A stretch of 64,000 bases of DNA from Octopus sinensis (GCF_006345805.1 NC_043015.1:11656001-11720000); one strand, 5' to 3'. Shown: positions 7,448 to 52,055, counted from the stretch's first letter. Program-made: numbers and translations. The notes: generated by a model from the sequence alone, not told the origin.

Positions 7448-10400
7448 TATGTTTGACTTTTGCTTTATATTTGTACAAGTTGGCTCCAAGTCTCACCCAG
7501 AGACCTCAAGAGACAACAGGGTTGGAAGTTCATGTTGTTGTTATGCCTAGTGTGCCATATATTTGGGGGGTGGGGATGTTGTACTAATGAATGTCTAAAA
7601 AAAAATAAAGTTTTTTTTTTTTTTTTTTTTTTAAACCGAAAATTATGGTTGTTTTAAACCTTGAGGTTACATAGAGAGTATTTTGCGTAGGATATGAGCA
7701 GTTCCCATGAGCACTATCTTTTGAACTTCTGCCATTTTTGGGTTTCCTGGTATCTGAGTTAGATAGCTATCAGCCCCTTTTGCTATCATTCCCAGGGCAC
7801 CTATGACAACAGGTATTGTTTTAGTCTTCAGCTTCCACATTTTGCTGATTTCTATTTCAAGATCTTTATATTTGCTCAGTTTTTGGTAGGTCCTGACAGA
7901 TACGTTTATATCGATTGGGACAGTCATATCAATGAGGAGGCATGTTCTTTGTTTGAAGTCTTTCAATATGATGTCTGGCCTATTTGCATCTATCTTCCTG
8001 TCAGTTTGAATGGTGAAGTTCCAGAGGAGTGAGATGTGGTCATTTTCAAGCACTGGGGGTGGTTTGTGTTCCCACCAGTTTTTTTCATGGGGCAAATCCA
8101 GGTTTTTACAGATTACCCAGTGAATATATTGTGCAGCTCTATCGTGTCTGTTGAGATACTCTGTAGGCGCTAGAAGACTGCACTTGGAGACCACATGGTC
8201 AATGGTTTCATTTTGTTGCTTGCATACACGACATGTTGGACTGCTTCTGATCTTTAATATGTTGGCCTGGTAGTTTCTTGTTGGTAGGCATTGATCTTGA
8301 GCTGCTATGATAAACCCCTCTGTTTCAGATTTTAAGCCAGAGGCCATTAGCCATTGATGGGTCAGGGCTTTGTCGATATCTGCATTATTCGCTCGCTTTG
8401 GGTATTTGCCATAGAGAGGTTTTTCTTGCCATTTATTATTCAGAATATCTAAGGCCGCAGTTTTGGCACGGGTTTTCATGCGCCTAGCTTTTTCTGTGCT
8501 TGTTTCTCGTATGTCTATCTCTAATTCCGAAATTGGTTGTATTCGGAATTCACTTAGATATTCCTTTGCCTGTTTTGTGACTGAGTATGATGCTTTCTTG
8601 TTTTCATGTTTTGAGACAAGTTTTAACATCCAGTCCTCAGAGTTTTTCAGGTAGGTGTCTAGGCCAATTGTAGCAATCTTCATTGTTATTGCCAGTTGCA
8701 AAAGACCACGGCCTCCCTCTTTTCTTGGCAGATAGAGTCGTTCTGTATCTGCCTTAGGGTGGTGCATTCTATGCATTGTCAACAGTTTCCTTATTTTTCT
8801 GTCGAGCTGACATATTTCAGTAATTGACCAGTTAACAATATTGAAACTGTAAGTCACGACTGGTATAGCTAATGCATTGGTTGCTTCGATCCTGTTTCTT
8901 GCATTCAGCTCTGTCTTGAGTATTGCTCTCACTCTTCGATAGCATTCTCTCCTGATCCTTGCCTTCATCTCTGAATGCCTTATTCCGTTCCCTTCAATTA
9001 CCCCTAGGTACTTGTAGCTCTCCGCTGGGTCTAGTTCTTTTATGACATTCTGTTGGTCAAGGTTAACGTTAGATGTTTCTGTCATTTTTCCTTTGATAAA
9101 GGTAGCCTTTGCACATTTATCGAGGCCGAATTGCATTCTGATGTCGTCACTGAATTGTTTGACTATCGCTAGTAAGCCCTTGAGTTGTTGATCATTTTTT
9201 GCAAAAAGCTTTAAATCATCCATGTAAACGAGATGATTTATATTTTTATCAAACATTTTATACCCGTACTGCGCGTCATTGAGCACTTTGAGAGAGGTAT
9301 TAAGGATAAACAAAAGAGGAGTGGTGACAGTGAGTCACCCTGGAAAATGCCACACGAAATTTTTACATCACCAGCATTTAGGGATTCACTGTCACTGTTC
9401 AGAGTTAGTGTGGTTCTCCATGATCTCATACTTACAGTCAAGAAGTTTCGCAGAGTTGGTGCTATCTTATACATTTCAAGGCATTTCCTAATCCAGCTAT
9501 GTGGTAGGCTATCAAAAGCCTTTTTATAGTCTATCCAGGCTATTGATCAGTTTTTGTGTCGTTTCTGACAATCTTCTAAGATCATCTTATTGATGAGTAG
9601 TTGGTCTTTACAGCCGTAGGATCCACGTTTACATCCTTTCTGTTCATTAGGGAATATGCTGCTGTCTGTTAAAAAACTATAGGTATATTCCGTCAGGACA
9701 GATGTTAGTGTTTTGTACATAGTTGTTAAGCAGGTTATGGGTCTATAGTTTTTTGGTTCATTTGTTTCTTCACTTTTTGGAAGCAGGAATGTTAACCCAT
9801 TAACTAGCCAAGGAGGCATCCTACTAGGGTGTTGCAAAACATCATTGTACAGTTCTGTTAGCAGTTCATGGCTCTCTGGGAAGGCATTCAGCCAGAAGTT
9901 AGGAATTTTATCCTTTCCTTGAGACTTTCATTTGCTTGACCTCCTGAGAGCAGATCTTATATCTTCTACCTTGACACCCTCCCACTTTTGCTCTTCTAAG
10001 GGGTCCAGTTCTGTAGATATTCTGTCAATCCAGGGGGCCTTTTCGTTGTGTGTTTTTTCTTCTGCCCAGATTTTATTCCAAAATCTCTGCACTTCTTCTT
10101 TTGATGGTACAGACCCTGCAGTAAACGCTGTTTTTCCTATCTTCCTGTAAAAATTCTTGGTGTTATTTTTGAACATGTTGTTGTCCTTGAAAAATCTAAC
10201 ACGCTTTTCATACCTCGCTATGCGGGCAGCTTTGGCAGATACCTTTTGTTTGATGGTTTCTATGGTGGCATCAATATCAAGTATAGTTTTCATATTGTAT
10301 TTTTTCAGTAATGTTTGGGTTTTTGTAGGTTTGGTAGTCTTGTGAGCCTTAAGGTTTTTCAAATATTCAATGTCAGATCTAAATACTTTAATTTGTTGTT

Positions 10401-12398
10401 GCAGACGCTCTTGCCAAGAAGGCTTTTTGTGGGACTGTTGCCGTTTTCTAATCTTTACACCACATAGGATCGTTGAAATTTTCGCGGATGCATAGTATAG
10501 GTGGTTGAGGTTTGTGATATCAACATCATTAACTGAAATTATATCCTTAAGTGCAAGCCGGATTTTACCAATTATTTTCATGTTTTGGTTAGAGTTGCGG
10601 ATTTTAGGAAGTGTATCACGCTCATCCATGCTGGTTTCTTTAATTTTCAGCCATTCAATCATGATTTGATTTTTTAGCTCATGTAGTTCTGTTGGGTCAA
10701 TATTTGTGTGACTTTCTTTATCTATTTGATGCTCATCTGTCTTAGTGTTTATGATTGGTTCAGGGCGTATTTCACTTTGCCTATCACTTATACTAACTCT
10801 TTCAATCCTCTCTTCGTTTTTATCCGCCCTGGGCTGGTCTATAATCATTTCCTCTGTATTATCTTCTCTAGCTGCAGCTTCGTTCATTTTATCCGATATT
10901 GCTTGTCTAACCTGATCAATCTCTACTTCAGTCAGTAATTTCTTTTTTATAATGTTTCTTCTAACATTGGCAAGCTTGTTACTGTCTATGTAGGGTCTTA
11001 CTTCAGGGTGTTTCTGTCTCCAGTTTAAGTATGCTTGTACAGTGCTAGACTTATCTGTGGGGAAATATATGGCATGGTAGAAGGCCTCAAGAACTTCTTT
11101 ATTATCTTCCCTAGACCATTTTTCCTTCTTTTCTTTTGATTATTGGTGATGAGCATGGATGGCCATCTGTTGGAATATTCCGGTTGTGGGGTTCGTCCAG
11201 CTCCTGTGTGTTGGGAAGATTTGATCCAGTAACTGATTTTTCAATCAGGATTTGGTTCAATTTTCGGGTACGTGGTCTTTTGTAATCCGCGCAATGACCA
11301 ATGCGGTTTATTGTTTGATTTGTTGACCTTGAAGCATGACGAGCATCCATTCTTATATTAGGAGATGGATCTGTCAGTTTAGGGTTCACTACATGTAAGC
11401 ATTGCTCATAGCGCCGCTTCTTAAGACTAGCAGATCTATATTCGTCTGTATTTTTTTTGTTGATAGTTTTATCTCCGGACATTTTTTTTTTTTCCTCCTT
11501 TCCTCCTCTTCCTTTCTTCAAGGCTTACTGTGTCTGTATTAGTTCGAAATAATGAGAATAAAATACGGAGAAGGAAACGAAAAGAAAGGGAAAAAGACGG
11601 GATCTGTCAGTTATTATTGTTATTACTATCATCTTCACCACCATCACCATCATCAGCAACATCACCATCACCATCATCATCTTCAATGTGTAGCCACAGC
11701 CACCATCAACACTCCATTGTGTTGGAGAATGGGTGGTTAAAGAATTCATGTTCTTTGGGTCTATAAATAGCTACGGTAGATGGTGGAGACAAAGGACGTT
11801 AATGGTCAGTAAAAGGTCAAACCTGTTTACGTTTATTTATTTATTTATTTTTTCCTTTCTCTTTTCTTCTTCACCACATGCATATGTATATGTATATATA
11901 TGTATATTCACTCACACATATTATCTGATGTTTTCGTCGAAGATTTTTTTTTTCTTTTTTTTAAATAACTTTCTGAGTTCAATGTTATGTATATATTTTT
12001 AAATTTCTGAATTCAGTTGTATGTATATAGTTGTAGGTGCTTAATTCCATAACTTTTTATCGTGCATTTAATTGTGTTGTTACAATAAAAGGTAATTTAA
12101 AAGGCAATTTTACACATTCTTATAGTCATGAGAGACGACTAAATGTAAATGTTCACACAGAATTGGAGATATGTATGTTTCTAATTTTTCTTGTTAGGTG
12201 TACGTTTGTATGAGCTGTAGATATGTAAGTTTTCTTTTTTTACTTATTTTGAGGGTAATTCAAATTACTTACAGAAAACAGTAGATCTTCCAGTTTTCTA
12301 CAGTTGACCTGCTGGGTTCGCTGTTGCCAGTTCAGAGCATCGTAAAAATACGTCCATCCTCTGTCACGTCCAGCCGCCTTCTGTCACGTCCAGCCGCC
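7447..12398 (-). mobile_element. Near full-length R4/Dong-clade non-LTR retrotransposon (RT + CCHC + restriction-like endonuclease)
   Basis: Single-ORF architecture with (TAA)n at both ends (7366-7446, 12399-12439). The 5' limit is inferred from the flanking tract. Confidence 0.88.
7667..11521 (-). pseudogene. R4/Dong ORF broken by a few frameshifts: Myb-like N-terminus, reverse transcriptase, zinc knuckle, PD-(D/E)xK endonuclease
   Basis: ORF pieces 11111-11521, 9928-10887, 9547-9837, 9238-9474 and 7667-9313. Motifs: WSREDNKEVLEAFY, NYRPITCL, EQKGC, GIFQGDSLSPLLF, VYMDDLK, YKYLG, CRVC..ETIDHVVSKC, RHD, RPDII..IDMTVP..KLSKY. Confidence 0.93.
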
Positions 12399-18098: not shown

Positions 18099-18676
18099 GG
18101 CGGCGAGCTGGCAGAAACGTTTGCACGCTGGGCGAAATGCTTCGCAGAATTTCGCATGCCGCTACGTTGTGGGTTCAAATTCCGCCGGGGTCGACTTCGC
18201 CTTTCATCCTTTCGGGGTCGATTGAATAAGTACCAGTTATGCACTGGTTCGATATAATCGACTTAATCCGTTTGTCTGTCCTTGTTTGTCCCTTCTGTGT
18301 TGAGCCCCTTGTGGGTATTAAAGAAATAGATATTTCGTCTGCTGCTACGATCTGAGTTCAAATTCCGCTGAGGTCGACTTTGCCTTTCATCTGTTCGGGG
18401 TTGATTAAATAAATACCAGTTATGCACTGAGGTCGCTGCAATCGACTTAATCCGCTTGTCTGTACTTGTTTGTCCTCTCGGTTTCTAGCTCTTTGTGGGT
18501 AGTTAAGAAATAGGTATTTCGTCTGCCGCTACGTTCTGAGTTCAAATTCCGCCGAGGTCAACTTCGCCCTTCATCCTTTCGGGGTCGATAAATTAAGTAC
18601 CAGTTACGCACAGGAGTCGATGTAATCGACTTAATCCCTTTGTTTGGCCCCTTGTGGGCGACAAAGAAATAAGAAG
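18099..18676 (+). mobile_element. SINE family B: tRNA-like head plus three tandem 184-bp body units
   Basis: Head GGCGGCGAGCTGGCAGAAACG; the unit restarts (TATTTCGTCTG) at 18331 and 18515. Confidence 0.9.
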
Positions 18677-26157: not shown

Positions 26158-26838
26158 AATACACACATATACACACACATTCACACACATTCATACACAG
26201 ACACGTAACATAGCGTGTATATGTTTACACTGACAGTAGTATTTACATTTCGATTAGCAATTGTATATAATTAAAATACCACTTGATTTTAGTCATATCT
26301 TATTTCTAATTAGACTGACTAGCTCTTGAATATTTATGAAGCAAATTATCAAATATTTCAATATTTGAAGTTATTAAATGGTGGCGTCTCCAGTTCAAGT
26401 CCTATTATCACGGGACTATCTGCGTCTCTGAATATTTTGTGTCAAAACTTTTGATGATGCATCAAGTATGTTGGTATTGTTACACTCAGCGTATAATTAC
26501 ACATATATTAATTACTGAGACATTTAGTATATCCTCATAGATGTCAGTACTACAACGCTTAGTTTATTATAGTATATACAAACATACATAAATACACACA
26601 CACATACATATATATTCTACTCATCGCTTGTCCAATATATAACATCTATATAATCACCGAATTACGATGCAACCTTAAGTTACTACTCAGTCGCAATAAG
26701 CAACCTATCCCTTTTATTTTGTATTTCCCTCTTACGATTCCCTTCGTACATTTCCCTTACCCACCACATCGTCATTTACTTCTTTTCCATACTTCCAGTT
26801 CCTTCCCCATCTCCCCCTAGCTTCTTCTTCAACCTGTA

Positions 26839-27425
26839 CCTATTTCTTTACTACCCACAAGGGGCTAAACACAGAGGAGACAAACAAGGACAGACAAACG
26901 GATCAAGTCGATTACATCGACCCCAGTGCGAAACTGGTACTTAATTTATCGACCCCGAAAGGATGAAAGTCAAAATCGACCTCGACGAAATTTGAACTCA
27001 GAACGTAGCAGCAGACGAAATACCTATTTCTTTATTACCCACAAGGGGCTAAACACAGAGGGGACAAACAAGGACAGACATAGGTATTAAGTCGATTACA
27101 TCGACCCCAGTGCGTAACTGGTACTTAATTTATCGACCCCGAAAGGATGAAAGTCAAAATCGACCTCGACGAAATTTGAACTCAGAACGTAGCAGCAGAC
27201 GAAATACCTATTTCTTTATTACCCACAAGGGGCTAAACACAGAGGGGACAAACAAGGACAGACATAGGTATTAAGTCGATTACATCGACCCCAGTGCGTA
27301 ACTGGTACTTAATTTATCGACCCCGAAAGGATAAAAGGCAAAATCGACCTCGACGAAATTTGAACTCAGAACGTAGCAGCAGACGAAATACCGCATAGCA
27401 TTTCACCCGGCGTGCTAACAATTCT
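26839..27425 (-). mobile_element. SINE family B with three near-identical tandem 184-bp units
   Basis: CCTATTTCTTTA recurs at 26839, 27023 and 27207; partial head at the right end. Confidence 0.9.
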
Positions 27426-31948: not shown

Positions 31949-33688
31949 ATTTGGCTCAAAAGCAAATAGCAAGGCCATGTAGGGGGACATGGAGTTAAGT
32001 ACAGGGTGGTGTTCATGTAAAGAGTTCAGGCCACTTGAGGTCAAGGGAGGCTTTGAACAAAGCGGTCGTCGGCATCTTCACCATCTCGTCTGGCAGCTTG
32101 TTCCACGGATCCGCAACCCGGACGGAGAAAGCTCCTCTCCTTCGATTGAGATGAAATCGTCGCAGGTAGAGCTTTTCGGAATGACCCCGCAGCCGACGCT
32201 CTGGAGCAGGAGTGAAGAACAGCTCTTTCGAGAGGTTACACTTTCCGCTTATGATGTTGTGGGCGAGAATGAGATCACCACGGCGGCGGCGTTTTTCAAG
32301 AGAATAAAGGTCGAGCGTCCTGAGCCTTTCTTCATAGGACAAATTTTTGAGACCATGAACCATGCGGGTAGCCAGCTTCTGGACTCTTTCGAGATGCTGT
32401 ATGTCTTTGAGGAGATAAGGAGAAGAGGCTTGAATCCCGTACTCCAATATGGGTCTCACCAGCGTGACATAGAGTGGTAGGAATATGGCTGCTGTGAGCA
32501 TTCCGAATGACCGTCGAATCAAGAACAGAATTCCGCGTGCTTTGTTGGCAGCACTGGGCCGAAGGCGAAAAGGAGGAATCCACCAAGATACCCAGGTCCT
32601 TTACCTGATCGGTCCTCTCCAGCAGCAGACGACCCGGCTCGAAATCAAGTTGAGTTGCAGGAGGAGAGCCAACAGGCAGATGACAGCACTTTGACACGTT
32701 CAGACACAGGTCCCATTCGTTAGACCACTTTCAAATTTGGTGGAGGCATCGACGAAGATCCTCTATATCACCGCGAGGAGCGACCAGTTCGATATCGTCG
32801 GCAAATAGAAGGGTGTGATGCGTGAGGTCTTCGGGCAAGTCATTTATGAAGACTAAGAACAATAAGGGCCCAAGCACTGAACCTTGAGGCACGCCACTGC
32901 TCGCACTGGAGACGTCGGACCGCGAACCATTAACTTGGACTTGGAAGGAGCGATCTGAGAGGAAGGCACCAACCCATCGTACAATATCCGGATGGAAACT
33001 ATATGCTTGAAGCTTGACAAGTAATAGGCGGTGGTTTACCGAGTCAAAAGCTTTGGCAAAGTCCAATAAAACGATGTCAACAGCATCACTATCATCGAGG
33101 ATGCGCGTCAACAATTCTTCCATTACCAGTAAGTTGGTCAAGCATGATCTCCTCGGCACGAAGCCGTGTTGGGAATCAGAGATAGAGGCTGTGTTTTGGA
33201 GGTGGAGCATCATACTTTTCTTAAGGATGGTTTCGAACATCTTGCTGATTATTGATGTAAGGGAAACCGGTCGGTAGTTAAGCGGGTCTTCGCGGCTCCC
33301 TTTCTTGAAAATTGGGCAGATTATCGCTGTTCTCCAGTCCGCAGGTATAACACCCGTCGCCAATGACATATTGAATAGATGTGTTAAGGGCTCGCAGATG
33401 ACCGGAGTCAACGCTTTGATAACCCGTGGGTGTATGCCATCAGGGCCGTGACCCTTGTTGACATCGAGGCCTTGAATAACACGTTTGACGTCGGTAGTTA
33501 AGCGGGTCTTCGCGGCTCCCTTTCTTGAAAATTGGGCAGATTATCGCTGTTCTTCAGTCCGCAGGTATAACACCCGTCGCCAATGACATATTGAATAGAC
33601 GTGTTAAGGGCTCGCAGATGACCGGAGCCAACGCTTTGATAACCCGTGGGTGTATGCCATCAGGGCCGTGACCCTTGTTGACATCGAG
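31887..33688 (-). mobile_element. 5'-truncated CR1-clade LINE with (AACT)n tail
   Basis: RT motifs NYRPVSLTS, QHGF, DFAKAFDSV, GVPQGSVLGPLLF, LFADD, and the CR1 C-terminus VRPILEY..LERVQ..SYEERLRTLDL..RRRGDLI. Tail (GTTA)n to 31948; TAGGT direct repeat at 31882-31886 and 33689-33693. Confidence 0.93.
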
Positions 33689-44984: not shown

Positions 44985-45072
<88 letters not shown>

Positions 45073-45223
45073 AATTAAGGACTGAACACGAAAAGTGGAC
45101 AGTCAACATGCTAGATATAGACGTCAAATCGCCATTCACCACAAAAGATTATGTTCTCAGATCAAACTCAACACAAAACCATAGCAATAAACAAGTGAAA
45201 AATATACGAAATAAAATAATTAC

Positions 45224-45288
45224 CCATGTACTAAATTAGTTTCAGCTGTTATTTTCCGCAAGGAAAACTGCAGCCATCATCAGCATGG
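45224..45288 (-). ncRNA. Type I hammerhead ribozyme (array 1, inverted arm)
   Basis: CCATG-CTGATGA-t-GGCTG..TTTTCC ttgc GGAAAA..CAGCT-GAAA-CTA att TAG-TA-CATGG. Confidence 0.85.
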
Positions 45289-45681
45289 TCCGTTATAAAT
45301 GTAATTTGCTGGACTAGATGCAAACACGATACCGAAATATCGCGTGCATGGAGTTCAGCCTATTACACTTTTCGTTTTCAGTCCTTAAGTGGTATATATA
45401 AATATTTTAATCTTCGGATTCTTTTTTAATATGCTAGACCACTGGTCTTAATTGATAAATATCAATTTCTACCCTTAATTAATTTTATATAAATAAATAT
45501 GTTCTCTAACCGATAAATTAACTGCTGCTAATTATTAGCTGCAGTCTAGTTTTCTCGGGTTCCAACGCGCCAAAGTAAAGGCATTTGAAAGATATATTCA
45601 AATGTAATAGGCTGAACTCCATGCACGCGATATTTCGGTATCGTGTTTGCATCTAGTCCAGCAAATTACATTTATAACGGA

Positions 45682-45749
45682 CCATGCTGATGATGGCTGC
45701 AGTTTTCCTTGCGGAAAATAACAGCTGAAACTAATTTAGTAGTACATGG
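45682..45749 (+). ncRNA. Type I hammerhead ribozyme (array 1, copy 1)
   Basis: Same fold, with 3 extra nt in loop III. Confidence 0.82.
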
Positions 45750-46190
45750 GTAATTATTTTATTTCGTATATTTTTCACTTGTTTATTGCTATGGTTTTGT
45801 GTTGAGTTTGATCTGAGAACATAATCTTTTGTGGTGAATGGCGATTTGACGTCTATATCTAGCATGTTGACTGTCCACTTTTCGTGTTCAGTCCTTAATT
45901 GGTATATATAAATATTTTAATCTTCGGATTCTTTTTTAATATGCTAGACCACTGGTCTTAATTGATAAATATCAATTTCTACCCTTAATTAATTTTATAT
46001 AAATAAATATGTTCTCTAACCGATAAATTAACTGCTGCTAATTATTAGCTGCAGTCTAGTTTTCTCGGTTCCAACGCGCCAAAGTAAAGGCATTTGAAAG
46101 ATATATTCAAATGTAATAGGCTGAACTCCATGCACGCGATATTTCGGTATCGTGTTTGCATCTAGTCCAGCAAATTACATTTATAACGGA

Positions 46191-46254
46191 CCATGCTGAT
46201 GATGGCTGCAGTTTTCCTTGCGGAAAATAACAGCTGAAACTAATTAGTACATGA
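46191..46254 (+). ncRNA. Type I hammerhead ribozyme (array 1, copy 2)
   Basis: Same fold; stem III is the perfect palindrome ACTAATTAGT. Confidence 0.82.
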
Positions 46255-46694
46255 GTAATTATTTTATTCGTATATTTTTCACTTGTTTATTGCTATGGTT
46301 TTGTGTTGAGTTTGATCTGAGAACATAATCTTTTGTGGTGAATGGCGATTTGACGTCTATATCTAGCATGTTGACTGTCCACTTTTCGTGTTCAGTCCTT
46401 AATTGGTATATATAAATATTTTAATCTTCGGATTCTTTTTTAATATGCTAGACCACTGGTCTTAATTGATAAATATCAATTTCTACCCTTAATTAATTTT
46501 ATATAAATAAATATGTTCTCTAACCGATAAATTAACTGCTGCTAATTATTAGCTGCAGTCTAGTTTTCTCGGGTTCCAACGCGCCAAAGTAAAGGCATTT
46601 GAAAGATATATTCAAATGTAATAGGCTGAACTCCATGCACGCGATATTTCGGTATCGTGTTTGCATCTAGTCCAGCAAATTACTTTATAACGGA

Positions 46695-46759
46695 CCATGC
46701 TGATGATGGCTGCAGTTTTCCTTGCGGAAAATAACAGCTGAAACTAATTTAGTACATGA
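46695..46759 (+). ncRNA. Type I hammerhead ribozyme (array 1, copy 3)
   Basis: Same fold. Confidence 0.82.
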
Positions 46760-46998
46760 GTAATTATTTTATTTCGTATATTTTTCACTTTTTATTGCTA
46801 TGGTTTTGTGTTGAGTTTGATCTGAGAACATAATCTTTTGTGGTGAATGGCGATTTGACGTCTATATCTAGCATGTTGACTGTCCACTTTTCGTGTTCAG
46901 TCCTTATTGGTATATATAAATATTTTAATCTTCGGATTCTTTTTTAATATGCTAGACCACTGGTCTTAATTGATAAATATCAATTTCTACCCTTAATA

Positions 46999-47042
<44 letters not shown>

Positions 47043-47264
47043 TCAATATAGGGTGCCAAAAAAAAATTTTGTAGAATTTTTTTCCCACCAGCGGCCTAGT
47101 GGGAAAAAATTAAATAGTCATAGACCATTTTTAAGTTCAACATCAACAATCAAGGAACGGCCATAATAGGCCATTCACCCACTAGAAATAACAGCCAAAG
47201 CTTCAACCGCAAATAAAAATCAATTCCGTAAACAGGAGAACATTTAAAAAACATTTACCCTGTA

Positions 47265-47370
47265 ATTTCTTATACGATGCACCGTTTCATCTGCTGTTTA
47301 ATGGTAAACTAACCTGATTAAATTAAATCAGGCCAATCTTCCATAGGCCCTCAGATTCTTCAGTAAGAAT
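47265..47370 (-). ncRNA. Type I hammerhead ribozyme (array 2, minus copy)
   Basis: TTCTTA-CTGAAGA-ATCTG..CAGAT-GAAA-CG gtgcat CG-TA-TAAGAA on the minus strand. Confidence 0.82.
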
Positions 47371-47751
47371 AGCCACAAGTCGGAACAGATATTTTCACGA
47401 GGCATTTCCGACCCTGCCAGGTAATATCTGACCTAAAATTTTCAAATCATCGCACTCGCGCCAAATTTATCGGCGCAAATAATATAAGCCGTCGATTCCA
47501 TTACGGAATTAACCAGAAAATTCATAATTAATCAATATAGGGTGGCAAAAAAAATTTTGTAGAATTTTTTTGCCACCAGCGGCCTAGTGGCAAAAAATTA
47601 AATAGTGTCATAGACCATTTTTAAGTTCAACATCAACAATCAAGGAACGCCATAATAGGCCATTCACCCACTAGAAATAACAGCAAAGAAGCTTCACGCA
47701 ACTAAAAATCAATTCCGTAAACAGGAGAAAATTAAAAAACATTACCCTATA

Positions 47752-47856
47752 ATTTCTTATACGATGCACCGTTTCATCTGCTGTTTAATGGTAAACTAAC
47801 CTGATTAAATTAAATCAGGCCAATCTTCCATAGGCCCTCAGATTCTTCAGTAAGAT
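47752..47856 (-). ncRNA. Type I hammerhead ribozyme (array 2, minus copy)
   Basis: Same fold, 487 bp from the previous copy. Confidence 0.8.
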
Positions 47857-48312
47857 AGCCACAAGTCGGAACAGATATTTTCACGAGGCATTTCCGACCC
47901 TGCCAAGGTAATATCTGACCTAAAATTTTCAAATCATCGCACCGCGCCAAATTTATCGGCAGCAAATAAATATAAGCCGTCGATTCCATTCGGAATTAAC
48001 CAGAAAATTCATAATTAATCAATATAGGGTGGCAAAAAAAATTTTGTAGAATTTTTTTGCCACCCGCGGCCTAGTGGCCAAAAATTAAATAGTCATAGAC
48101 CATTTTTAAGTTCAACATCAACAATCAGGAACGGCCATAATAGGCCATTTACCCACTAGAAATAACAGCCAAAGCTTCAACCAAGCAATAAAAATCAATT
48201 CCGTAAACAGGAGAAAATTTGGCGCGAGTGCGATGATTTGAAAATTTTAGGTCAGATATTACCTTGGCAGGTCGGAAATGCCTCGTGAAAATATCTGTTC
48301 CGACTTGTGGCT

Positions 48313-48418
48313 ATTTCTTACTGAAGAATCTGAGGGCCTATGGAAGATGGCCTGATTTAATTTAATCAGGTTAGTTTACCATTAAACAGCAGATGAAACG
48401 GTGCATCGTATAAGAAAT
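48313..48418 (+). ncRNA. Type I hammerhead ribozyme (array 2)
   Basis: ATTTCTTA-CTGAAGA-ATCTG-(~58 nt)-CAGAT-GAAA-CGGTGCATCG-TA-TAAGAAAT; 8-bp stem I. Confidence 0.85.
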
Positions 48419-48797
48419 TACAGGGTAAATGTTTTTTAAATTTTCTCCTGTTTACGGAATGATTTTTATTTGCGGTTGAGCTTTGGCTGTTATTTCTAGT
48501 GGGTGAATGGCCTATTATGGCCGTTCCTTGATTGTTGATGTTGAACTTAAAAATGGTCTATGACTATTTAATTTTTTGCCACTAGGCCGCTGGTGGCAAA
48601 AATTTCTAAAAATTTTTTTTGGCACCCTATATTGATTAATTATGAATTTTCTGGTAATTCCGTAATGGAATCGACGGCTTATATTTATTTGCTGCCGATA
48701 AATTTGGCGCGATGCGATGATTTGAAAATTTTAGGTCAGATATTACCTTGGCAGGGTCGGAAATGCCTCGTGAAAATATCTGTTCCGACTTGTGGCT

Positions 48798-48904
48798 ATT
48801 TCTTACTGAAGAATCTGAGGGCCTATGGAAGATTGGCCTGATTTAATTTAATCACGTTAGTTTACCATTAAACAGCAGATGAAACGGTGCATCGTATAAG
48901 AAAT
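48798..48904 (+). ncRNA. Type I hammerhead ribozyme (array 2)
   Basis: Same fold. Confidence 0.85.
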
Positions 48905-49289
48905 TACAGGGTAAATGTTTTTTTAAATTTTCTCCTGTTTACGGAATTGATTTTTATTTGCGGTTGAAGCTTTGGCTGTTATTTCTAGTGGGTGAATGGC
49001 CTATTATGGCCGTTCCTTTATTGTTGATGTTGAACTTAAAAATGGTCTATGACTATTTAATTTTTTCCCACTAGGCCGCTGGTGGCAAAAAAATTCTACA
49101 AAATTTTTTTTTTTGCCACCCTATATTGATTAATTATGAATTTTCTGGTTAATTCCGTAATGGAATCGACGGCTTATATTATTTGCTGCCGATAATTTGG
49201 CGCGAGTGCGATGATTTGAAAATTTTAGGTCATATTACCTTGGCAGGGTCGGAAATGCCTCGTGAAAATATCTGTTCCGACTTGTGGCT

Positions 49290-49395
49290 ATTTCTTACTG
49301 AAGAATCTGATGGCCTATGGAGATTGGCCTGATTTAATTTAATCAGGTTAGTTTACCATTAAACAGCAGATGAAACGGTGCATCGTATAAGAAAT
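49290..49395 (+). ncRNA. Type I hammerhead ribozyme (array 2)
   Basis: Same fold. Confidence 0.85.
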
Positions 49396-49780
49396 TACAG
49401 GGTAAATGTTTTTTAAATTTTCTCCTGTTTACGGAATTGATTTTTATTTGCGGTTGAAGCTTTGGCCGTTATTTCTAGTGGGTGAATGGCCTATTATGGC
49501 TGTTCCTTGATTGTTGATGTTGAACTTAAAAATGGTCTATGACTATTTAATTTTTTCCCACTAGGCCGCTGGTGGCAAAAAAATTCTACAAAATTTTTTT
49601 TGGCACCCTATATTGATTAACTATGAATTTTCTGGTTAATTCCGTAATGGAATCGACGGCTTATATTTATTTGCTGCCGATAAATTTGGCGCGAGTGCGA
49701 TGATTTGAAAATTTTAGGTCAGATATTACCTTGGCAGGGTCGGAAATGCCTCGTGAAAATATCTGTTCCGACTTGTGGCT

Positions 49781-49887
49781 ATTTCTTACTGAAGAATCTG
49801 AGGGCCTATGGAAGATTGGCCTGATTTAATTTAATCAGGTTAGTTTACCATTAAACAGAAGATGAAACGGTGCATCGTATAAGAAAT
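49781..49887 (+). ncRNA. Type I hammerhead ribozyme (array 2)
   Basis: Same fold, with one mismatch in stem II (AAGAT for CAGAT). Confidence 0.8.
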
Positions 49888-50055
49888 TACAGGGTAAATG
49901 TTTTTTAAATTTTCTCCTATTTACGGAATTGATTTTTATTTGCGGTTGAAGCTTTGGCTGTTATTTCTAGTGGGTGAATGGCCTATTATGGCCGTTCCTT
50001 GATTGTTGATATATATATATATATATATAATATATATATATATTATATATATATT

Positions 50056-51208
50056 AAAACTTAGATATGTTTCGACCAGAGATTGGTCCAGGCCATGTCT
50101 AACTTAATAGCACCACCTGATAGGATTATTCGAATCCTGTTTAAGTCAAGTTTTGTTCAAGTAGTGAGTTCTTGTTGGGTGAGTTGTATCCAATTATGGG
50201 TGGCTTATCTGGTATTCTTTGAAGGAATCTATCCAGACTCTGTTTAAAGTTGATGGGATCCTTTTCCTCTTTGATCTCCCTCGGGACAATGTTAAATAGG
50301 GCATGGCCTGTTGAGGAAAAGAAATTATGTTGCAGTGTACATGTATGTTGTGATCTTGAATTTGGCAGGGGACGTATAACCCGTGGTCCAAGTCTTCGAT
50401 GATCCTTGAAGCTAATGTTTAGGTCGTTTGGGCAAAGTTGGCGGTATATTTTCCACATCGTACAAATGATGTACCGCTCACGGCGACGTTGGAGGGAGTA
50501 AAGTTTCAAGGCTTTAAGGCGATCCCAATAATCGAGAGCAGCCATGCCTTCAATTTGTTTAGTGAGAGTCCTCTGGGGTGACTCAATTTTGGAGATGTTT
50601 TGTCTTGTGTGAGGAGACCACAGTGGGCAGCAGTATTCAAGGTGTGGCCGTACAAAGGAGGAAAAAAGTGGTATGATGACACCTTGTTCTCTGGACCGGA
50701 AAGTTCTTAAGATCCAGGAACTCATCCTACGAGCTATATCGACCTTCTTGTTGATGTGTGCACTCCAACTGAGATCGTCATCAACAATTACACCCAGGTC
50801 TCTGATATTGTTAGAGGCTGTGAGCGGTTCCCCTGAAGGAAGAGAGTATGGTTGTTTTAGTGAGGAATTTCTTCCAAAATGCATCAGCTCAAATTTTCCC
50901 TCATTCAGTTGCATTTTGTTTCTGTCTGCCCATTGACTCACAGCATATAGAGTTGAGTTCGGTCTGCTTCTTCATTGACGATTTGCTGGAGCTTAGTGTC
51001 ATCAGCGAATATTTTCACTTTGCAGTGATGTACGACACTGGAAAGGTCGTTTACGTAAATTATGAAGAGTAGCGGACCCAAAACAGTTCCCTGGGGAACA
51101 CCGCTGGTGACTTTTGCTGGGTTTGAGTGGACTCCATCAACTACAACATGTTGTGTTCTATTCGCCAGGAAATACTGAATCCAGTGTAGAACTTTTCCAC
51201 GAATTCCA
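50056..51208 (-). mobile_element. 5'-truncated CR1-group LINE (RT C-terminal half + 3' UTR) between TA tracts
   Basis: GVPQGTVLGPLLF, IFADDTKL, RDLGVIVD, VRPHLEYCCPLWSP and LYSLQRRRERY; one frameshift near 50940. Confidence 0.9.
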
Positions 51209-52055
51209 ATATATATATATATATATATGTGTGTGTGTATATATGCATATATATATTTATATATATATACAAACACACACACACGCATACTTACGCATAT
51301 CCGAGTATGGATCTCTTTTCAATCATAGCTGCGTATTTTCACGAAATTGATTAACAATCGTCTTTATAAATTATAAATTGGGCTAAAAGATTCTACAATA
51401 CAGAATGGGTGTGACTGTTGTTAAGACTGTCACACCTCAACCATCTGGCTTCAAGTTCAATTTCAGTACGTTGCGCCACAGTCAATTGTCTCTCACTGGG
51501 CCCCAGGTTGAGCAAGGTTGAAGCAGTAAGTTCATACGGTGAAAGACTACAGAAAGTTGTCAAATTTGTCAACAACCCATAATGAGAATATGCTTTATGA
51601 ATGTTTTAAAGCAGAAAATTTCGCATAGGAACGTTCTGTTTCAAAAACTGTAACTTCCACAACCGGTGTCAAATATAGCAGGAGCAAATCTCTTTGTAAC
51701 AAATAGAATAAGTTCATGTAATGCGTGCATGTCAGTGCGATGCGTTTCTGTCTATGTATGTGTGCGTGCTTGTGGGGATTCGTGTGTGCGGATGAGCACG
51801 AGATTCTATGTTGATGTCTGTGTGAGTATTGTTAACACAGAAACACTATATGTGCCTTAGATTTGTCTTGAACTGATATCTACTGGAAGTGATTTGGTGT
51901 ATTTCCAGTAGTGATGTCAAAACCTTGGCTACTTCATCAAATTGCTAATCTAACATTTTGTTTATATTTGTAAGATCTCAAATCGATTTTTCTTTATCTG
52001 TCGCAAAGTTAAACTTGAATAATCCGAAATACGTCTAGAAACGTGTAGTATATCA

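Follow-up and report, generated by a model that had tools for sequence, protein, structure and literature searches.

A two-armed hammerhead retrozyme insertion in Octopus sinensis with fixed, paired ends that point to a Penelope-like enzyme

Results

Two inverted retrozyme arms in a TA tract

We analysed a 64,000-nucleotide stretch of the Octopus sinensis genome (NC_043015.1; hereafter the window), in which positions 47035-50010 hold a short, repeated unit with hammerhead ribozyme motifs that we call family A. The original prediction described a single tandem array at 47035..50010. The repeats and the hammerheads are present, however the layout is that of two inverted arms placed back to back, with the 3' ends of the ribozyme sense pointing outward into (TA)n. 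With unit nucleotides (nt) counted from the predicted ribozyme cut, the left arm (47035..48220, minus strand, 2.4 units) has its outer 3' end at nt 241, here called site 2, at position 47035, and its inner 5' end is truncated at nt 29. The right arm (48213..50010, plus strand, 3.7 units) begins at an inner 5' end near nt 295 and has its outer 3' end at nt 132, site 1, at position 50010. The arms overlap at their junction by 8 nt of microhomology (48213..48220), and the (TA)n target tract lies at 46996..47034 on the left, where it is common to family A and a second family (family B, below), and at 50011..50054 on the right.

The units were expected to be near-identical, non-coding, about 490 bp long and set in (TA)n, and all of this was borne out. 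Cut-to-cut length peaks at 490-492 bp in 34 fetched loci, the units at the window locus are 95-98% identical to one another, and their GC content is 0.36. The unit has no credible reading frame (at most 63 codons run without a stop, and no ATG frame exceeds 34 codons), and contains no frame for the reverse transcriptase (RT) and GIY-YIG endonuclease of an autonomous Penelope-like element. The predicted circle formed from one unit is highly self-paired, with z scores of -3.8 and -5.6 (30 shuffles each).

Type I hammerheads in the family A units

We located six type I hammerhead motifs at the family A locus, four consecutive ones on the plus strand and two on the minus strand; they lie on both strands because the arms are inverted. 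The plus-strand motifs are at 48313..48418 (predicted cut after 48410), 48798..48904 (after 48896), 49290..49395 (after 49387) and 49781..49887 (after 49879), and the minus-strand motifs are at 47752..47856 (predicted cut at 47760) and 47265..47370 (at 47273). This confirms the earlier claim of a full type I hammerhead in each complete unit, six copies in all, and the scan returned the same predicted cuts after the A at 48410 and 48896. Each motif consists of an 8-bp helix I, a CUGAAGA and GAAA core, a 5-bp helix II that holds an insert of ~58 nt, and a 10-nt stem III followed by UA. No shuffled unit passed the scan (0/3,000), and 120 identical motifs were counted in the fetched loci and the window. 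The claims of exact sequence held in part: the string ATTTCTTA-CTGAAGA is present in 4/6 copies but not in the two minus-strand copies, where helix I is shortened by two T (47752..47856) or one T (47265..47370), and the ATCTG..CAGAT helix II is found throughout except in the fourth plus-strand copy, which has one mismatch, AAGAT in place of CAGAT. Of the covariance-type searches proposed, Rfam gave no hammerhead match in the whole window or in 45000-50100, even at E 10, whereas our own hammerhead scan did; a narrow core pattern overlooked the motifs because helix II is long.

Stem III is a palindrome, with a folding energy of -0.2 kcal/mol as a lone hairpin vs -17.5 kcal/mol when paired with a second copy, and the family A ribozyme is thus predicted to need a dimer. 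A dimer design through a palindromic stem III is described for metazoan type I hammerheads in the available part of PMC4209133. At one locus (L059), two stem III changes that are fixed in all three covering units convert the palindrome to a four-pair hairpin, which may allow cleavage of the monomer. A ribozyme on both polarities of the unit, a viroid-like trait, was not found; in a scan for hammerheads and Rfam families, one polarity alone carries a hammerhead. Neither did we meet a type III hammerhead inside long terminal repeats (LTRs) around a unique middle, the plant LTR retrozyme trait; the topology is type I and the units are purely tandem.

Family A is dispersed in the genome

The many other genomic copies that had been anticipated were found. 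A genome search returned 213 matches, on many contigs, from 39 scored of 959 candidates, with identities of 92-100% among the 150 matches listed, and a 20-mer from the unit matches exactly at 2,709 genome positions (control 0). Units of different loci differ by 1.5% substitutions, a figure that includes sequencing error. Family A therefore reads as a young, dispersed, non-coding mobile repeat with many hundreds of copies, of which the window locus is one insertion. Its architecture of tandem type I hammerheads in a short unit with no frame and GC below 50%, in dispersed copies, supports the predicted identity as a real family of non-LTR retrozymes, a class already known. The literature that we searched holds no description of family A or of paired fixed ends in retrozymes; Repbase, Dfam and the supplement of PMC7229834, in which the family may carry another name, lay outside that search.

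Further hammerhead motifs with the same core but different stems occur in DNA flanking the fetched loci (L037:1-345, L106:7260-8370, L179, L035, L057, L063, L084, L112 and L138), and the O. sinensis genome holds many hammerhead families.

Outer ends are fixed and paired

For the comparisons among loci we used a set of 35, the window locus and 34 loci fetched from the best search hits, which leans to long arrays. The outer ends of family A arrays fall at two fixed points 109 nt apart, site 1 and site 2, and not at the permuted positions that had been suggested. Two outward-facing arms are seen in 24/35 loci, and in 24/24 of these one arm ends at site 1 and the other at site 2 (21 exactly, 3 within 10 nt). 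Another 10/35 are one-armed, with the outer end at one of the two sites, and 1/35 is atypical. Both orientations, that is, an inverted 5'-truncated copy, are present in 25/35 loci. TA flanks both sides in 34/35; target-site duplications are unreadable in (TA)n. Genome-wide, exact junctions of an end with TA number 444 for site 1 and 797 for site 2. A check of coordinates for the 153 junctions listed (contig 1 and the first 96.6 Mb of contig 2) gave 24 neighbours within 10 kb, of which 23 face outward, with one site 1 and one site 2 in 23/23; the remaining one consists of two same-strand site 2 ends. The inner ends vary, and are joined through overlaps of up to 10 nt or added bases (the inner-end counts given below leave out loci L041, L044, L052 and L065 and arms shorter than 100 nt).

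The same rule holds in family B, a second hammerhead family that adjoins family A on the left in the same TA tract. The original prediction recognised family A but overlooked this neighbour. Family B has a different sequence, its own hammerhead and a 505-bp unit, which exceeds the 500 limit of the tandem finder, and it has the same two-armed shape. Its left arm (45058..45370, minus strand) ends at family B site 1 and has a hammerhead at 45225-45288, and its right arm (45366..47018, plus strand, 3.3 units) ends at family B site 2 and has hammerheads at 45682-45748, 46191-46253 and 46695-46758. A genome search for family B gave 1,720 candidates, of which 40 were scored. The one-of-each rule holds in 20/21 cases in family B, with the sites ~95 nt apart. 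In L080/L050 the two families are again neighbours, at a distance of ~1.4 kb.

Inverted arrays could in principle be long-read fold-back or assembly artefacts, and the many homopolymer indels between units, together with several inversions in each of two loci (L041 and L052), would fit such an origin. We nevertheless regard it as extremely improbable: the fixed site at which one arm ends differs from that of the other, the flanking sequences do not mirror each other, and the end rule repeats in family B. Furthermore, contigs from other runs also end in TA, both at site 1 (X1, 48540) and at site 2 (X1, 49141; X16, 49137), which argues against an artefact. Part of the stretch is matched by 23 rows (10 studies, 5 organism codes), and contigs from 4/23 runs were compared with the locus; that these data are RNA is a guess, contigs do not reveal circles, and a search for RNA records containing the repeat listed none. 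L041 and L052 have three inversion junctions and four arms each, which could be real repeated switching or assembly error.

Each insertion has one sequence type

We next consider the units within each insertion. Among 255 unit pieces we counted 68 variants that are fixed throughout a locus, being present in every covering unit; 41 of them extend over both arms, compared with a single variant fixed in one arm only, and a further 45 variants are partial and 205 occur once. The number of locus-fixed variants (58 observed) far exceeds that obtained when units were shuffled among loci (mean 0.99), and of 28 locus-fixed variants, 17 occur at one locus alone, where they fill the entire array (up to 14/14 units). 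The 35 loci represent 21 locus types. The two arms are identical at polymorphic sites in 32/33 pairs within loci vs 124/1,854 between loci, the sites having been defined on the same loci, which biases the comparison toward within-locus identity; in family B the values are 14/16 and 137/650. At least two cut sites are crossed by 44/54 arms, and there are no added-base scars in the sequence across the predicted cut. For a mutation to fill both arms of an array, it has to pass through a single unit, and therefore each insertion was, we infer, copied from one monomer, for which a circle would be the simplest template. One sequence type per insertion, across both arms, agrees with the monomer-based origin originally proposed for the locus.

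We considered whether a single monomer was inserted and then grew in place through unequal crossing-over and gene conversion, as a satellite would, which is the route of Li et al. 2026. A few pairs of units within an arm do share several private variants (L052 units 10 and 8, and 4 and 3), as would be expected from some local duplication or from assembly noise. However, both inverted arms are multi-unit and of one type, and divergence is nearly the same within an arm (0.008) as between arms (0.009) and lower than between loci (0.015). The fixed, paired ends and the TA flanks are moreover marks of insertion, and we judge growth in place to be very unlikely.

A common RNA scaffold around the two sites

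One copy per unit of a predicted RNA scaffold spans both end sites; in the unit at 48979..49137 (plus strand), a hairpin and site 1 (49028) lie inside a helix, P1, which is followed by a YUAG-RCCR-CUGG motif (49072-49082), a hairpin, P3, and site 2 (49137). The motif, which lies between the two ends, also occurs in other elements met in the flanks of the loci, and a degenerate pattern made of the motif and a closing strand has 4,156 genome hits (control 1). In 12 related elements, P1 and P3 are paired in 88.8% of cells, and 10/16 pairs are changed on both sides; 0/500 shuffles reach this level and all slid controls are lower. The structure was drawn from family A and the relatedness of the 12 elements is uncontrolled, so that this covariation supports, and does not prove, a predicted common fold around both sites. 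When strands were swapped among elements, the preference for the own partner was only moderate (P1 first in 5/14 elements, P3 first in 7/13). The available part of a 2020 review describes animal retrozyme repeats as having no conserved motif that points to a mobiliser (PMC7761336).

The conserved motif at nt 171-187 of the unit (window ~49067-49083) can pair either upstream, in helix P1, or with itself downstream, and it is possibly a two-state switch that would offer site 1 or site 2. An apparent excess of inner ends at the 3' strand of P3 (11/54, p 1e-4) was dropped, as the window had been picked post hoc and family B gave 4/40 (p 0.15).

Signatures of Penelope-like elements

Previous work on the Poseidon protein of Anolis, a Penelope-like enzyme, demonstrated that reverse transcription starts at two internal sites whose spacing equals that of the genomic tail, and that cutting and extension take place on both strands of AT-rich DNA (PMC11167929). 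In the available part of PMC8557442, Penelope-like insertions commonly have an inverted truncated copy and a tail of 30-40 bp at one end, and some clades prefer (TA)n. Family A shows two start sites, an inverted copy, a one-ended tail and a TA target, all without a reading frame. The paired internal starts, the truncated inverted copy and the choice of TA targets are all signatures of Penelope-like elements, and we thus read a Penelope-like enzyme as the likely mobiliser; the insertion, an inverted pair primed from both sides, points to such an enzyme.

The genome holds at least five Penelope-like families, several with open frames of 775-784 aa for RT and GIY-YIG (L104, L108, L102, L110, L116-L145 and L166-L174). 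These families end in (TA)n, at least three of them at two points, some ~30-55 nt apart, and one has a 479-aa frame upstream of its RT frame. A search with one Penelope protein gave 865 relatives, none of which was identified as the partner of family A. No GIY-YIG frame lies within 0.7-1 kb upstream of 8 further motif sites, loci of another family, E, have no Penelope frame of their own, and the Penelope-protein matches in the fetched family A and B loci are fragments in the flanks. In a single case, L181:533-650 (minus strand), a related element carries at its 5' end, fused in the sense orientation, ~118 nt that encode the DKG region of a Penelope-type RT, possibly the trace of a template jump onto the enzyme's own mRNA; this RT fragment belongs to a further family with 133 genome candidates, of which 40 were scored.

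Short palindromic elements, a few hundred bases long, also occur in (TA)n; one of their arms has site 1 and the opposite arm has site 2 (L175, L176, L178, L182, L063:6920-7230 and L146-L165), and most are without a detected hammerhead. These elements, which look like miniature inverted-repeat transposable elements, are likely to be truncated products of the same two-site process.

A different enzyme, such as an RT of the long interspersed nuclear element (LINE) type, might mobilise the RNA, with the inversion arising by twin priming as in L1. Frames that resemble those of LINEs are indeed present in the window, and none of the five Penelope-like families checked has a 3' end that matches family A. 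However, family A itself has neither a poly(A) tail nor a simple 3' tail, and both start points are internal and fixed. L1 twin priming gives adjacent pieces and not overlapping ones, whereas the family A arms overlap in template position. The RT fragment in the L181 relative, single case that it is, likewise points to Penelope. We give a LINE-type mobiliser very little credence.

The frame fragments in question, which we take to be of LINE-type RT, lie at 50141-51318, 7667-11139 and 32013-33540, all on the minus strand, and the family A array is ~90 bases from the end of one of them; a Pfam scan of 50141-50971 matched no family. Elsewhere in the window, tandem arrays with a period of 184 bp lie at 18149-18643 and 26837-27392 and are likely a SINE-like (short interspersed nuclear element) repeat.

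Discussion

Taken together, we consider it probable that a Penelope-like RT-endonuclease, priming at both sides of a DNA break, copied a single RNA monomer of predicted circular form and so gave rise to the two-armed retrozyme insertion in the TA tract. An existing arm would be transcribed, and neighbouring hammerheads would pair through the palindromic stem III and release a ~491-nt monomer, which a host ligase would close into a circle, as in other retrozymes. The enzyme would hold the P1/P3 scaffold, the structure of which is supported by covariation. Both (TA)n strands would then be cut, and, by means of a 2-3 nt AT match, one DNA end would prime at nt 132 and the other at nt 241, where the footprint of the outer ends is seen. 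Both complementary DNAs (cDNAs) would run round the same monomer, by up to ~13 turns, as the single-template origin of the arms suggests, and their far ends would be joined by short microhomology or a few added bases, of which the inner junctions bear the footprint.

Several observations weigh against this scheme. Cleavage was found in 1/9 predicted retrozyme dimers by Li et al. 2026 (bioRxiv 10.64898/2026.07.22.740005), and the hammerhead core of family A is no better kept than the rest of the unit (14/1,305 vs 0.8%). The tail of family A would be 109 nt, vs the published 30-40 bp. The 3' ends of the five Penelope-like families, which come from searches that score only top candidates, have no scaffold motif and no DNA likeness to the family A unit, and the 20 kb upstream of listed motif sites contain 0/28 of the Penelope-like hits on contig 1; the expected linkage to Penelope-like RT/GIY-YIG frames was thus not found among these candidates. 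The comparison of arm pairs is biased as described above, and the homogeneity of the arrays is evidence of a monomer bottleneck and not of a covalent circle.

Other such points concern the form of the template, which for the same Penelope-type twin priming could have been linear: either an uncut multimer, or a cut monomer with its ends held by helix I and an RT that jumps the nick repeatedly. Inner ends are mildly in excess near the predicted cut in family A (7/54 within 30 nt, p 0.045; 3/40 in family B, not significant), which hints that some templates are linear, and three variants are common to same-rank units of both arms (L031, L042 and L062), as a linear multimer would give; the other partial variants that cross the arms are at unequal ranks. 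Furthermore, in the one reconstituted Penelope system, uncut RNA is the main substrate and ribozyme mutants still insert (PMC11167929). However, an uncut multimer would pass a new mutation to one unit only, at odds with the private variants that fill whole arrays. Template jumps often leave added or lost bases, as in R2 and L1, and no such scars are seen at the cut. We hold a linear template to be unlikely, though the template may have been a nick-jumping monomer, and a circular monomer remains our preferred template.

A broader reading, which we advance only tentatively and think rather less likely than the insertion mechanism itself, is that of a superfamily of ribozyme circles in which one conserved fold hands two start sites to a dimer of Penelope-type RT, one per strand of the cut TA tract, and both subunits roll round the same circle, writing an inverted multi-unit array in one event.

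Family A resembles the metazoan non-LTR retrozymes (PMC7229834; bioRxiv 10.64898/2026.07.22.740005) in its short, non-coding tandem units with one type I hammerhead each, its GC content of 36%, the absence of observed LTR features, its self-paired predicted circle and its co-existence with Penelope-like elements in the genome. At 491 nt its unit is larger than the 170-400 nt of PMC7229834 and falls inside the 51-972 nt of the bioRxiv study. It differs from these retrozymes in the long helix II insert and the 10-nt palindromic stem III, and inverted two-armed insertions, fixed paired ends, TA targeting and a common RNA scaffold are absent from the main texts of both papers. Cervera and de la Pena 2020 already considered Penelope elements to be the likely mobilisers of retrozymes and proposed that tandem cDNA is made from circles (PMC7229834), and Li et al. 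2026 reported a likeness of retrozymes to Penelope terminal repeats in frogs, favoured local amplification for the arrays and left the mechanism open.

The endonuclease-bearing Penelope-like elements, in what is accessible of the accounts of Anolis Poseidon (PMC11167929) and of Neptune, Naiad and others (PMC8557442), share with family A the inverted 5'-truncated copy, the tail at one end from two internal starts, the AT/TA targets and a hammerhead with a palindromic helix III. Unlike them, family A has no reading frame, many whole units per arm, a longer tail and strict one-of-each pairing of its ends. Non-autonomous Chlamys elements such as MRC1, as described in the same portion of PMC8557442, are likewise non-coding partners of a Penelope-like clade and form multicopy head-to-tail insertions. 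In contrast to family A, which has a hammerhead in each unit and for which no partner match was found, they match an autonomous family at the 3' end and belong to a clade without canonical hammerheads. The pDo500 satellite of cave crickets also has a hammerhead per repeat and, in the available part of PMC2837043, is described as satellite DNA, whereas family A copies are dispersed young insertions with defined ends. Both repeats are presumably of similar length, as we take the pDo500 unit to be near 500 bp, as its name implies.

What appear to be new are the insertion rule and the common fold, which make the mechanism testable. They bear on which enzyme moves animal retrozymes, on whether rolling reverse transcription or later local amplification builds the arrays, and on the related question of how Penelope elements make their inverted copies and one-sided tail. 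To these questions family A brings footprints that can be counted, namely the strict pairing of one end of each kind, the single template behind each insertion and the conserved fold on which two start sites are mapped, and it pins exact nucleotides and helices that can be tested in the existing Penelope-protein assay. If the superfamily reading is true, family A would provide genomic proof, for the first time, that a Penelope enzyme carries out rolling reverse transcription, the tail of Penelope elements and their inverted copies would be explained, and the scaffold would be a compact RNA handle for a telomerase-related RT.
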